Assembly (NCBI GenBank): GCA_034716535.1
Contig: JAYEJW010000243.1
Span: 6,243-70,242 of the forward strand
Direction: 5' to 3'
DNA length: 64,000 nt
Source of the DNA: Pseudomonadota bacterium
Lineage (GTDB): Bacteria; Pseudomonadota; Gammaproteobacteria; Chromatiales; Chromatiaceae
Part shown: piece by piece, positions 58,565 through 62,546 of the stretch
Layout of the letters: each line of letters begins with the position of its first letter
Numbering within the stretch: position 1 is the stretch's first letter
Made by a program: the position numbers and the translations under genes
The notes under the pieces: generated by a model
Told to the model about the DNA's origin: nothing
What the model saw: only the letters and a program-made list of their open reading frames with translations
Databases searched by the model: none

Positions 58565-58716
58565 TGCTCGACCTGCTCAAGGACCTTTGGGGTTTCATGA
58601 AGACGCGGAAGAAGTTCTGGCTGGCACCCATCATCATCGTGATGCTGCTCCTCGGCGGCCTGATGGTGCTGACTCAGGGCTCTGCGGTCGCACCCTTCAT
58701 CTACACTTTGTTCTGA
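58564..58716 (+). CDS. DUF5989-family 50-aa membrane peptide
   Basis: ATG at 58564 overlaps the SxtJ stop (CTGATG). MLDLLKDLWGFMKTRKKFWLAPIIIVMLLLGGLMVLTQGSAVAPFIYTLF is near-identical in pattern to the DUF5989 consensus as I recall it. Confidence 0.65.
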   Translation: MLDLLKDLWGFMKTRKKFWLAPIIIVMLLLGGLMVLTQGSAVAPFIYTLF

Positions 58717-58825
58717 TGGGCGGACTTAGTGGAATCATCGGGGCGTTTCTGAACCTTGCGGGATCTTGATGTCGGCGGCTGAGCAGTTACCCAGGGGTCC
58801 CGTACCTCCGGAGGAAGAGCGCTGA

Positions 58826-60736
58826 ATGGATCTTCGGCCCGCACCCGCCCGCTGGTTCGAGATCGTCGTCCCGACAGAGGACGCTCACGACACCATGGAG
58901 GTGCTTGCCCGCCGTGGCCGCGTCCAATTCGAATGGAAGGGCGAGCACAGTGTCGCCGCGCAGCTGGAGCCCTTGCGGGAGCCGATCGCCGGTTACCGAA
59001 CGTTCGCACGTCAGTTCGAGCGGTTCTGGCCGGAACCCGTATTCGAGGCGCGCTGCTGCACGCTTCCGGTGGAGATCGCCGCCCAGGCGGCGATTCGGCA
59101 GATCGAGCGCTGGCGCGAGGCCGCCGGGCCTTTGCTGGAACGTCTGAATCGCCTTCAGCGCCAACAGCAGGAGCTGGACCTGTGGCGGCCGCTGCTGGCA
59201 TCCCTTGCCATTTCGGGCTCTTCCTTTGATTTTGGGGCTCTGGCCGCCGCCGGACCGGTTCTTGCTGGTTACGCTCTCCTGTTGCCCGAAGCAGGGGAGC
59301 CGCCCGGGCCGTCCGGCGCCCTTTGGGCAGAGACCCGGTTCGAAGACAAGCGTGCCCTCCTGGGCCTGATTCCTCGGGACGACCTTCCCCTGTTGTGTGA
59401 GCGGGCTCGCGCTCGTGGTGCCGACTGTCTCTCTGTTCCTGATTGGTTCGCCGGGACGGCTGATGAGTGCAGCGCTGAGCTGCCTTATTGCATCATGGAA
59501 CAGGAGCGTCAGGCGGAACACCTGGAGCAGGAGTTGCGCAAGCTTGCCGAGGATCTCGGCATCGACCACGCCGCCGGGGTTCTGGAGCGGCTCGACTGGT
59601 TCCAGCGCACTGCCGAGAATATTTCTTGCGACAGCCGCTACTGCTGGATTACCGGTTGGACCAGCGAGGAGGACTCGGGAGCCATCAACAGGGCGCTGCG
59701 GGAGGTTGGCGTTGAATCGTCCGTCGAGTTCGTGGAGCCGCCGCAGGATGCATCCTTACCTTCGGTGACCCGAAATCCGGCCTGGTTGCAGCCGTTCGAG
59801 GTGTTCACGCACGCCGTCGGCGTACCCGGCGTGCGGGAAGCGGACCCGACGACCTGGGTCGCCCTGCTGGTGCCGCTGATGTTCGGCTACATGTGCGGCG
59901 ACATCGGGCACGGGGCCGTGATCCTGACGGCGGGGTTGCTCCTGAGGGGCCGCACCGAGCTGTGGCCCCTTTTCCTGTTCTGCGGCATTGCGTCCATGGG
60001 CTTCGGTTTCGCCTACGGCGATGTGTTCGGATTCGAGCACCTGATCGAACCGCTCTGGGTCCACCCGCTGGCTCAACCCTTCACCCTGTTGTTGGTGCCC
60101 GTCGTTGCGGGCGCCCTGGTGCTGACCGTAGGCGTGTTGCTGCACTTCGTTCAGACCTGCTGGAGGGGACAGGGGAGATCGGAGGGAGTCGCGGACGTCG
60201 CCCAGTTGCTCGTCTATTGGGGCATCATACTGGCCTTCCTGGATGTGCGTTTCGGGTGGCTGTGTCTCGCCGGCGCCTCCCTCTGTATCGTCAACCGGCT
60301 GTGGACCGAGCGATCGGCGACGGCGCTCCTGATTGGAATCGGCCAACAGATCCAGAACACCTTCGAGCTCTTGCTCAATACCCTGTCGTTCGCGCGCGTC
60401 GGCGCCTTCGCCCTAGCCCACGCGGCGTTGGAGTCCGCGGTCATAGCGATCGCCGATGGTGTTTCGACCCTGGCGGTTGCGGTGGTCATCATCGTCGTGG
60501 GGAATCTGCTGGTCATTGTCGTCGAAGGCCTAGTCGTTGGCATTCAGACGACACGTCTGGTGCTGTTTGAGTTCTTCATGCGGTTCTTCGAGGGGACGGG
60601 CCAGCGATTCCAGCCGGCGTCGCTTCCGCCCACCGACGCTCGCACCAAAGACGGCCGTGACCGTGCAAGTAGGCGCCGAAGGCGCTCCTCGTCCCCCTCT
60701 CCCCCCGGGAGAGGGCCGGGGAGAGGGCAATTGTGA
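58826..60736 (+). CDS. V/A-type ATPase subunit I (a-subunit, 116-kDa family) homologue, orphan
   Basis: 636 aa: an N-terminal ~310-aa soluble domain, then 7-8 TM helices. FEVFTHAVGVPGVREADPTTWVALLVPLMFGYMCGDIGHG and LSFARVGAFALAHAAL (stator Arg helix) match V_ATPase_I family hallmarks. VLFEFFMRFFEGTGQRFQP is a typical family C-terminus. The last ~35 codons run into a REP-like palindrome, so the real C-terminus is uncertain. Confidence 0.7.
   Translation: MDLRPAPARWFEIVVPTEDAHDTMEVLARRGRVQFEWKGEHSVAAQLEPLREPIAGYRTFARQFERFWPEPVFEARCCTLPVEIAAQAAIRQIERWREAAGPLLERLNRLQRQQQELDLWRPLLASLAISGSSFDFGALAAAGPVLAGYALLLPEAGEPPGPSGALWAETRFEDKRALLGLIPRDDLPLLCERARARGADCLSVPDWFAGTADECSAELPYCIMEQERQAEHLEQELRKLAEDLGIDHAAGVLERLDWFQRTAENISCDSRYCWITGWTSEEDSGAINRALREVGVESSVEFVEPPQDASLPSVTRNPAWLQPFEVFTHAVGVPGVREADPTTWVALLVPLMFGYMCGDIGHGAVILTAGLLLRGRTELWPLFLFCGIASMGFGFAYGDVFGFEHLIEPLWVHPLAQPFTLLLVPVVAGALVLTVGVLLHFVQTCWRGQGRSEGVADVAQLLVYWGIILAFLDVRFGWLCLAGASLCIVNRLWTERSATALLIGIGQQIQNTFELLLNTLSFARVGAFALAHAALESAVIAIADGVSTLAVAVVIIVVGNLLVIVVEGLVVGIQTTRLVLFEFFMRFFEGTGQRFQPASLPPTDARTKDGRDRASRRRRRSSSPSPPGRGPGRGQL
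60695..60727. repeat. REP-like GC-rich palindromic element, copy 1
   Basis: CCCTCTCCC-CCC-GGGAGAGGG-CCG-GGGAGAGGG. The 21-mer GGGAGAGGGCCGGGGAGAGGG (60707-60727) is repeated exactly at 60783-60803. Confidence 0.85.
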
Positions 60737-60767
60737 ACAAATGTTCCATGGACGGAACAACAGTTTT

Positions 60768-60803
60768 CTCCCTCTCCCGTTTGGGAGAGGGCCGGGGAGA
60801 GGG
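60768..60803. repeat. REP-like GC-rich palindromic element, copy 2
   Basis: CTCCCTCTCCC-GTTT-GGGAGAGGG-CCG-GGGAGAGGG, a direct copy of element 1 located 76 nt downstream. Confidence 0.85.
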
Positions 60804-60924
60804 TCTTCCTCATGACAGCCGTGTTTTCATGCTCCGGGGCGACACGCGTGTCATGATGGGTTAGGCTACACTGGCATTTCGGCTAAGCGATTGGCTTCTC
60901 CGTCCTTTTCGGTCCGGGGCCGCG

Positions 60925-61692
60925 ATGAAGAGAGACAAAACCGCTGCCATTGTTCTTATCCTTTTCGTCTGGGGGCTGGCAGGGGCGCTGTTTGGGAGCC
61001 TGTTTGCCGGTCTGTACCAGGTGCTCCTGGTTCTAGGCGTCGGCGGCTGGAAGCCCTTGGTGGTGGGCGCGGCGGCCGCGGCCATGACGACCTCGGCGTT
61101 CTACAGTGCCATGCCGGTCGCTCTCGTCGGGGCAATGGCTGGTGTGATTGCGTCCATCGCCTACCTGATGGTGACAGGACACCGGGTGGAGCTTTTTCTC
61201 ATCTCCAGTGTTGCTGCGGTTGCCGGGCTGGTGGCGGGGAGCTTCTACGCCTGGATGGTCAAGGGCGGTGGGCGACCGCTCGCGCAGACGCTTAGGGGAT
61301 TGCTCGCCGGACTCGCGGCGGGTGGTCTGTTGGCGGCGGGGCTCTCCTTTTACGGCGGGGATGTCGGCATGTTCGTCATGGCGGCGGGCGTCGTCGCCCT
61401 GGTCGGCAGCCTGTTCCAGTTGTCCGAGCGCTGGTTTGTGGGCCGCATTTCCGGCTGGTGCCCGCGGACAGTCTCCGCACCCGTGGTGGCCGCGCTGATC
61501 GCCGCCGTTGTCGGTGCCAGCGTCTGGATCATGGGCGGCGTGACCGCCGGAGCTCTGGACTCTGCGACCAAGGGGGCCATCGATCAGGTCCTGCGCGAGG
61601 TACCGGCGGGATTCCTCGGCGGGTTGCTGGGCGGTGCCGTTACGGGGGTACTGCTGGAGCTCATGGGTGTGCACCTGGAAGAGCGCGCCTGA
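60925..61692 (+). CDS. Hypothetical Gly/Ala-rich polytopic membrane protein
   Basis: 255-aa ORF with about 7 hydrophobic segments rich in G/A/V/L small-residue motifs (GLAGALFGSLFAGL, VGAMAGVIASIAYL, LLAGLAAGGLLAAGL, GGLLGGAVTGVLLEL). No family recognised. It could still be a GC-composition artefact, but its hydrophobic periodicity argues for a real gene. Confidence 0.5.
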   Translation: MKRDKTAAIVLILFVWGLAGALFGSLFAGLYQVLLVLGVGGWKPLVVGAAAAAMTTSAFYSAMPVALVGAMAGVIASIAYLMVTGHRVELFLISSVAAVAGLVAGSFYAWMVKGGGRPLAQTLRGLLAGLAAGGLLAAGLSFYGGDVGMFVMAAGVVALVGSLFQLSERWFVGRISGWCPRTVSAPVVAALIAAVVGASVWIMGGVTAGALDSATKGAIDQVLREVPAGFLGGLLGGAVTGVLLELMGVHLEERA

Positions 61693-61742: not shown

Positions 61743-62546
61743 ATGAACAGGTTTCCGTTATCCATCCTGATCGGCTTGCCGCTTGCGGTTCTCGCCGCCG
61801 GGCAGGCTAACGCGAGCGAGACTGCTGGGTCGACAGGCGGAGCAGACACGACGGACGAGACCTCCGAGGCTGCGGCTGAGCCTCCGGCGGGGAACAAAGT
61901 CGTTCCGCCGACGAAGAAGCCCGCGCCGAGCAAGTCGCAGCTCAAGCCCATGATCGACCGCACCGCCAAGAACTACGGAGTCGAACGGGAGCTGGTACAT
62001 GCCGTCATCGCCGCCGAGTCGGCCTACAACGCCCACGCGGTGTCCCGCGCCGGTGCCATCGGCCTCATGCAGGTCATGCCGGCCACCGCAGCCGACTACG
62101 GCGTGACTTCCACGGAGGCGCTGTTCGAGCCCAAGGTCAATGTCAAGACCGGCACGCGCCACCTCAAGCGATTGCTCGGTAAGTACAGGAACGACTACGG
62201 ACGGGTCATCATGGCCTACAACGCCGGGGAGGGCGTGGTCGACCGCACCAACAGCAACGTCACCTATGCCGAGACGCTCGACTACACGGCCGCGGTCATC
62301 AGGCAATATCGCCGAAATGGGGGCAAGCAACCCACCGAGGAGGCGATGCGGAAAGTCAGCATGCTGCGAAGAATCAGCGGTTCCGGCAAGGCCCGGCGAT
62401 TAATGAAGAAGTACCTCGATCCCTCCCTGCTGTCGCTGAAGGTCCGTCCGACACTCCCTATCCGCTATCTCGATCCGGGCCTCCACAATGCGGGACCGAA
62501 AAGCCGGCCCATGATCGTACTGGAGTCGCCCAAGACAAAGAATTAG
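61743..62546 (+). CDS. Lytic transglycosylase (SLT domain) with signal peptide
   Basis: ATG at 61743 gives MNRFPLSILIGLPLAVLAAGQANA. The SLT core is VIAAESAYNAHAVSRAGAIGLMQVMPATA...AYNAGEG. Confidence 0.85.
   Translation: MNRFPLSILIGLPLAVLAAGQANASETAGSTGGADTTDETSEAAAEPPAGNKVVPPTKKPAPSKSQLKPMIDRTAKNYGVERELVHAVIAAESAYNAHAVSRAGAIGLMQVMPATAADYGVTSTEALFEPKVNVKTGTRHLKRLLGKYRNDYGRVIMAYNAGEGVVDRTNSNVTYAETLDYTAAVIRQYRRNGGKQPTEEAMRKVSMLRRISGSGKARRLMKKYLDPSLLSLKVRPTLPIRYLDPGLHNAGPKSRPMIVLESPKTKN

Follow-up and report, generated by a model that had tools for sequence, protein, structure and literature searches.

The stretch of DNA analysed here, called the window below, comprises 64,000 nucleotides (nt) of a Chromatiaceae assembly (G000:C243:6243-70242), which has a size of 5.76 Mb distributed over 706 contigs and is 98.7% complete. 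At 58826-60736 of its forward strand lies an intact open reading frame (ORF) of 636 amino acids (aa) that carries both motifs quoted in the original prediction as marks of subunit I (a), the stator and proton half-channel subunit of the vacuolar/archaeal-type (V/A-type) ATPase. We call this gene orphan I. Upstream of it there is a module with carbamoyltransferase and SxtJ genes, and downstream there are two palindromes, a membrane protein rich in glycine and alanine, and a lytic transglycosylase. As judged from its sequence, orphan I encodes a paralogue of subunit I that is complete, stands on its own and has been maintained by selection. Its N-terminus (MDLRPAPARWFEIVVP) lines up with the N-termini of its orthologues, and therefore we take the start codon to be right; a Shine-Dalgarno sequence, GGAGGAAG, can be read at 58810-58817 (+ strand), 8 nt before the ATG.

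The orphan protein and its fold

The similarity on which the original prediction was built is significant. The 636-aa ORF matches the Pfam family V_ATPase_I (PF01496) with 61 bits against a gathering cut-off of 30.7 and an E value of 7.7e-17, and the cut-off is also passed in a scan of its own genome. Nine NCBIfam models for V-type ATP synthase subunit I (NF004427-NF004435) match as well, the best with an E value of 6.7e-40, but their equivalog cut-offs are missed by far (at best 137 versus 777 bits). On these profile scores the protein is a member of the family, but an equivalog of no curated NCBIfam subtype.

An AlphaFold2 model, for which 104 homologues were used as input, has a mean predicted local distance difference test (pLDDT) score of 92 and a predicted template modelling score of 0.81. 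The elements follow the canonical order of proximal lobe, helical hairpin, distal lobe and eight membrane helices, and both the model and the Foldseek comparisons give a cytoplasmic N-terminal domain followed by a C-terminal eight-helix membrane domain. The N-terminal domain (residues 1 to ~335, 58826-59830, + strand) consists of two alpha/beta lobes connected through a long helical hairpin, with pLDDT values mostly above 90. The membrane domain (residues ~336-603, 59831-60634, + strand) contains the motif MFGYMCGDIGHG, the Arg helix LSFARVGAFALAHAAL and the last helix VVEGLVVGIQTTRLVLFEFF. The remainder of the ORF is a non-conserved C-terminal tail (60635-60736, + strand), in which the pLDDT falls below 55 from about residue 610. 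Orthologues stop at ~602-610 aa, and the final ~27 codons of the ORF overlap the first copy of a repetitive extragenic palindromic (REP)-like sequence (60695-60727), from which the last part of the tail derives.

Foldseek aligns the model over its full length with subunit I of Thermus thermophilus (6r0z chain N) in 679 columns, with an E value of 5e-19 and a template modelling (TM) score of 0.58. Full-length matches were also obtained with 6qum chain N and with eukaryotic a subunits, and the membrane domain alone reaches TM scores of 0.72-0.74 against 9u6g and 9u6h. The top sequence match in the PDB is NtpI of Enterococcus hirae (8wci chain P). Orphan I thus resembles the Thermus and E. hirae subunits in its two-domain architecture, its length and its eight-helix membrane domain, and it has in common with them the essential Arg helix, the terminal helix with Glu, Gln and Arg, and the match of the whole fold. 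It differs from them in being encoded by a solitary gene, which comes as a third in addition to the two in operons and has a promoter-like element of its own; in remaining below all the NCBIfam equivalog cut-offs; and in clade-specific changes, among them F357C and L465W.

The residues on which the proton path depends are kept. R524 (in LSFARVGAF), H532, E567, Q574, R577 and E582 show no variation in 104 sequences, and when the orphan proteins are compared with the two types of operon-encoded subunit I described below, T1 and T2, each of these residues is either unchanged or conserved to 90% or more. H532, which comes after the Arg helix, and the conserved Glu, Gln and Arg of the last helix are residues of the half-channels. 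The codons of R524, E567 and R577 lie at 60395-60397, 60524-60526 and 60554-60556 (+ strand), respectively. R524, in the penultimate long helix, presumably faces the c-ring carboxylate as the counterpart of R735 in Vph1p and R563 in Thermus. In total, 54 positions are conserved at 90% or more in all three groups, and about 10 are fixed in the orphan clade differently from T2, such as F357C (in MFGYMCGD) and L465W.

Resident operons and the solitary gene

A tblastn search of the contigs of the genome, with the full complement of subunits from the two resident V/A operons as queries, found no further ATPase gene on the 72-kb contig C243, which contains the whole window. Thus, the original prediction is right that orphan I lacks K, E, C/d, F, A, B and D genes as neighbours, and this holds for the entire contig; at more than 15 orthologous loci it is likewise unaccompanied by any gene for c/K, d, E, F, A, B or D. 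In the genome as a whole there are three homologues of subunit I, counting orphan I, and two D subunits, and the sets of d, K, E, A and B are likewise two. One operon, T1, is made up of C571 (d, I) and C593 (K, E, A, B, D), and the other, T2, of C646 (d, I, K, F, E and the start of A) and C432 (A, B, D), with its subunit I at C646:1745-3568. Each is split over two contigs with overlapping ends, which confirms its continuity. Besides these, two sets of F-type ATPase genes lie on C82 and C308. Since each of T1 and T2 has an I of its own, orphan I makes a third copy, and it was not displaced from an operon. Paralogues of I are in this way more numerous than the sets of the other subunits (three versus two), as is the case for subunit isoforms, and the same is found in other carriers. 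The labels that these genes bear, 'V/A-type ATPase subunit I' or 'hypothetical', hide their status as solitary paralogues, in what is likely an error of annotation transfer.

The original prediction had considered that the gene might have been displaced from an operon lacking its own I. A complete operon lacking only I was sought throughout the genome and was not found. Both operons have an I, as is also the case in the 14 related genomes examined; only two sets of D, A and B exist in a genome that is nearly complete; and a third operon type present in some relatives carries an I as well. We found nothing that speaks positively for a displacement, and the fragmentation into 706 contigs leaves some room for an unassembled operon. 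With T1, T2 and the third type all provided with their own I, we reject this explanation as extremely unlikely.

Several features of the operons deserve mention in their own right. T1 and T2 commonly lie head to head in Chromatiaceae, divergently oriented and ~1-2 kb apart (L030-L043), an arrangement that was seen in 14 related genomes. The gene order is x-d-I-K-F-E-A-B-D in T2 and d-I-K-?-E-A-B-D in T1. The third operon type, B-D-I-K-E...A, occurs in some relatives (L060-L063, that is, G048:C44, G010:C41, G120:C14 and G041:C5) and is absent from G000; its own I is very divergent, with 23-28% identity.

Descent and selection

Relatives of orphan I form ~90 clusters at 90% identity, which are 44-72% identical to it and come without exception from Chromatiaceae-like genomes or metagenomes. 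Below a gap, identities go on at 33-38%, and apart from the tree members described next, the matches in this band are embedded in x-d-I-K-F-E-A-B-D operons of other Proteobacteria. The high-identity class is present in 8 of the 151 Chromatiaceae species genomes sampled (G000, G052, G110, G010, G054, G120, G047 and G048), the last of them being the cultured Thiohalocapsa marina DSM 19078, in which orphan I has the locus tag F2Q65_12560. All eight carriers also hold T1 and T2, and the association between orphan I and T2 over the 151 genomes gives a Fisher p of 4.7e-5, a value that is not corrected for phylogeny. A pattern scan added five more carriers, with a T2-type I in all five and a T1-type I in four; among them, G155 shows only a truncated orphan and T2.

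The phylogenetic placement recommended in the original prediction was carried out with IQ-TREE (59 sequences, 'quick' search). Orphan I falls in a clade of solitary genes, confined to Chromatiaceae, with a Shimodaira-Hasegawa-like approximate likelihood ratio (SH-aLRT) support of 100, in which the stator Arg and the Glu/His channel residues are retained, whereas the T2 subunits I of Chromatiaceae form a separate clade (98). The deepest member of the orphan clade, P0089, is itself solitary, and the nearest outgroup, L026, sits in an operon (I-K-F-E). The tree groups the orphans with T2-like subunits, and a branch of ~3 substitutions per site parts them from T1. By its place in the tree, orphan I is an old offshoot of T2-like subunits I. 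A recent duplication of the Chromatiaceae T2 gene was considered and is not supported, the orphan clade being placed outside the T2 clade. Inside the orphan clade the branching order repeats the species groups that the T1 and T2 trees show, a pattern suggestive of vertical inheritance together with repeated losses. In the operon of L026, the T2-type K (c) gene (2035-2397) encodes a single hairpin after a hydrophobic, signal-peptide-like N-terminal segment. Another T2-like sequence, the metagenomic 720-aa protein P0116, combines V_ATPase_I and ATP-synt_C Pfam domains and is either an I/c fusion or an artefact of gene calling on a 2.7-kb contig.

The nearest relative of orphan I by sequence is the I of the T2 operon, with 35% identity over the full length, and the two share the N-terminal signature M.LRP..RWFE besides the membrane motifs; the T1 subunit aligns over the C-terminal half only, with 30% identity. 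Orphan I differs from the T2 subunit in belonging to a separate clade, in evolving about twice as fast, above all in the N-terminal domain, and in never being found in an operon. These relations bear on the possibility that orphan I serves as an alternative stator for the T1-type enzyme, or for both types, instead of T2. T1 is present in 8/8 carriers among the 151 genomes and in 4/5 of the further ones, and T1 and T2, being divergently adjacent, may be co-regulated. However, orphan I is nearer to the T2 subunit both in the membrane domain (45% versus 34% identity with T1) and in the N-terminal domain (27% versus 16%), and the position in the tree, far from T1, agrees with this. We therefore consider a role with T1 unlikely.

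Two genomes carry reduced copies. In G041 (C17; L038 6905-7552, equivalent to L057 783-1430), a relic from which residues ~124-525 have been deleted lies directly upstream of the intact Gly-rich protein and transglycosylase pair, which gives the impression of a gene whose loss is still under way. In G155 (C3; L016 8016-8837), a 273-aa copy starts exactly at the membrane domain, is 72% identical and has lost none of the channel residues; the choice is between a truncated relic and a variant made for the membrane sector (Vo) only. This copy hints that the Vo part could act even in the absence of the catalytic sector (V1).

Rates of change were compared in seven genomes that hold all three paralogues. 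The mean pairwise identity over the whole protein is 58.5% for the orphans, 71.7% for T2 and 70.7% for T1; the corresponding values are 50%, 67.5% and 67% for the N-terminal domain, and 69%, 77% and 75% for the membrane domain. Nei-Gojobori dN/dS ratios are 0.19-0.24 for orphan pairs (dS 0.29-1.0) against 0.09-0.13 for operon subunits I, and within the orphans they are 0.25-0.30 in the N-terminal domain and 0.08-0.21 in the membrane domain. Such ratios make clear that orphan I has been under purifying selection, and they point to the cytoplasmic N-terminal domain as its fastest-evolving and most relaxed part.

This has to be weighed against the view that orphan I no longer has any function and is decaying slowly, as the one gene to survive from a T2-like operon that was lost or rearranged. 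Losses have been repeated, as exemplified by the deletion relic of G041 and the truncated copy of G155; orphan pairs have roughly double the dN/dS ratio of the operon copies; and in the window the C-terminus has been lengthened by the insertion of a REP-like sequence. On the other hand, dN/dS ratios of 0.19-0.24 at dS values up to 1.0 indicate purifying selection over a long divergence, almost all of the ~90 clusters keep an intact reading frame, the catalytic residues do not vary, and an upstream element, presented in the next section, is conserved together with a good Shine-Dalgarno sequence across differing genomic contexts. A functionless remnant is, in our opinion, quite improbable.

One observation on the T2 subunit of a carrier was not used as evidence that an orphan substitutes for it. 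In G120 (C14; L036 12775-14588), the T2 gene for I is spread over three reading frames, which change at runs of C4 and G4, and the other genes of the operon are intact. Because the shifts are sited at such homopolymer runs in a metagenome-assembled genome of long-read-like character, they are probably assembly errors and not pseudogenisation. If they were real, orphan I would be the sole intact T2-like I in that genome.

Upstream element and neighbouring genes

A -10-like element, CTACACT, with a C at position -13, is located at 58701-58707 (+ strand), 125 nt before the ATG and within the last codons of the small ORF upstream. In its context, TCTACACTT (58700-58708), it fits the first 9/9 positions of KCTAYRCTTAA, the -10 consensus of sigma-S (PMC5650638). 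In 11 of 14 orphan-I genes, whose flanks are unrelated, a motif of the form CTA-N-A-[ACG]-T precedes the ATG by 45-170 nt, and in an unbiased search for TAnAnT upstream of orphan-I genes a C precedes 11 of the 13 hits. As a background, CTAnAnT is present in ~2% of 189-287 control regions upstream of genes at the same loci, with 0.02 occurrences expected per 220 nt genome-wide, and in control regions of T1 and T2 (>1 kb) in only 2 of 20 strand-scans. No conserved -35 element exists among the upstream regions of orphan-I genes. The element in the window has the features by which a sigma-S -10 is recognised, a C at -13 with no requirement for a -35, on a consensus that was defined in E. coli. The genome encodes rpoS on C483 (440 bits versus a cut-off of 379). 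Stationary-phase or stress control of orphan I through sigma-S may thus be taken as a lead. A scan for sigma-70 consensus promoters returned nothing, and Rfam has no hit at E <= 1 in the leader and the surroundings of the gene. The leaders of orphan-I genes differ in length (36-160 nt) and have no obvious common sequence.

The description of the surroundings in the original prediction is mostly borne out. Upstream, the carbamoyltransferase and SxtJ genes are confirmed by Pfam, and the small ORF read as DUF5989 has no hit in Pfam or NCBIfam. Downstream, the two REP-like palindromes are located at ~60695-60803 as a GC-rich pair with a weak hairpin between them; their 19-mer core, GAGAGGGCCGGGGAGAGGG, begins at 60709 and 60785 and is present in 23 copies on 16 contigs of the genome. 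They are followed by the polytopic Gly/Ala-rich membrane protein of 255 aa (60925-61692, + strand), which is indeed unclassifiable by Pfam and NCBIfam, and by a lytic transglycosylase (61749-62546, + strand; Pfam SLT, 4.4e-29), whose gene comes after that of the Gly-rich protein in the closest relatives and is retained as a pair with it in G052, G110 and G041. The name 'spermidine synthase' given by NCBI to orthologues of the Gly-rich protein is probably misleading.

No conserved neighbour besides the I gene itself emerged from an all-against-all clustering of the ORFs at 11 orphan-I loci, and the Pfam contexts of six further loci have no common theme. In T. marina the flanks contain GGDEF, photolyase-like and FeoAB genes; in other genomes there are DabA with Proton_antipo_M genes, FKBP genes, or GDT1, AbgT and MgtE. 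The membrane protein downstream, which had been proposed as the obvious candidate partner, does not hold this position. Its orthologues at 50% identity or more are found in ~50 of the 151 Chromatiaceae genomes, mostly without orphan I, against 8 for orphan I. The two genes adjoin only in G000, G052, G110 and G010, and beside the relic of G041, where the Gly-rich gene is intact; in four carriers (G054, G047, G048 and G120) they lie on separate contigs. Phylogenetic profile and synteny therefore rule it out as a dedicated partner, and we regard it as a neighbour outside the system.

A broader alternative, also raised in the original prediction, is that the a-subunit fold has been reused outside rotary ATPases as an ion-conducting or scaffold protein, acting alone or with a non-ATPase partner, the Gly-rich neighbour included. 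The absence of adjoining ATPase genes in more than 15 contexts would agree with such a reuse, as would the relaxation of precisely the stalk-binding N-terminal domain, the retention of the membrane domain alone in one genome, and the changes F357C and L465W that are fixed in this clade. However, invariance extends to all the residues known to interact with the carboxylate of the c-ring or to form the lining of the half-channels, a complete stalk-binding N-terminal fold is predicted with pLDDT values above 90, and every carrier has a T2 operon. Neither has a new partner come to light among the neighbours, none of which is conserved, and the Gly-rich protein has a far wider distribution and is often on another contig. 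In view of this, reuse of the fold seems to us improbable.

Stator exchange as a possible function

It is not obvious what purpose an intact proton path combined with a stalk-binding fold could serve if c-ring and V1 head were missing. Among the c-rings of the carrier genomes, those of T2 and T1 alone are of matching type, and orphan I is nearer to T2 in both of its domains. The most economical reading is, thus, that an alternative I enters the T2-type enzyme, and with moderate confidence we favour the view that the T2-type V/A-ATPase has in orphan I an alternative stator subunit under separate regulation. The gene would be transcribed from its own sigma-S-like promoter, apart from both ATPase operons, under the conditions that activate this promoter, with stationary phase or stress as a lead. 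In place of the I from the operon, the product would then be built into the resident T2-type V/A-ATPase, joining its c/K ring, its subunit d and its peripheral stalks. The resulting enzyme would have the same proton path and a different cytoplasmic N-terminal domain, and this altered domain could confer a different regulation, stability or coupling, in parallel with the a-subunit isoforms of eukaryotes. We only infer the dependence on sigma-S, the assembly into a V/A-ATPase and the identity of the operon supplying the partners.

Several points weigh against the view of an alternative T2 stator. The assignment to sigma-S depends on a consensus from E. coli, and the element in the window lies inside the upstream gene, with no terminator found between the two genes, for which reason read-through transcription from the upstream module is possible. 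The partnership with T2, as opposed to T1 or nothing, was deduced from sequence relatedness and from a co-occurrence that is phylogenetically clustered. Moreover, orphan I is dispensable, having been lost in many lineages, with a relic in G041 and a membrane-domain-only copy in G155, and the constraint on it is about two times more relaxed than that on the operon copies. The T2 operon subunit, on its part, is not relaxed in the carriers, and therefore gives no sign of its replacement.

Like yeast with Vph1p and Stv1p, and mammals with a1-a4, the carriers of orphan I have more paralogues of a than sets of the remaining subunits, and in both cases a conserved membrane core is joined to a divergent cytoplasmic N-terminal domain. 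A sharing of the other subunits with the resident copy is, for orphan I, putative. Unlike the eukaryotic isoforms, it is bacterial, has no known compartment targeting and is an accessory copy that is often lost. The N-terminal domain of the eukaryotic a subunit carries isoform-specific regulation and targeting (PMC10755780).

A literature search for bacterial a/I isoforms or orphan copies found nothing relevant. To our knowledge, prokaryotic rotary ATPases have been treated as fixed machines encoded by operons, and subunit isoforms have been regarded as a eukaryotic elaboration.

The more general proposal, which we advance only tentatively, is that stator exchange takes place in a rotary V/A-ATPase of some purple sulfur bacteria, an a-subunit isoform controlled by a stress sigma factor replacing the operon-encoded I and thereby retuning regulation, coupling or stability. 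If the isoform reading is true, orphan I would offer a simple bacterial system for asking how the exchange of the a subunit changes a V/A-ATPase, and with at least one cultured carrier, T. marina DSM 19078, a direct test is feasible. It would also help to account for the retention of two or three V/A-ATPases, in addition to F-type enzymes, in Chromatiaceae, and stator swapping would then be a prokaryotic counterpart of the switching of a-subunit isoforms in eukaryotes.

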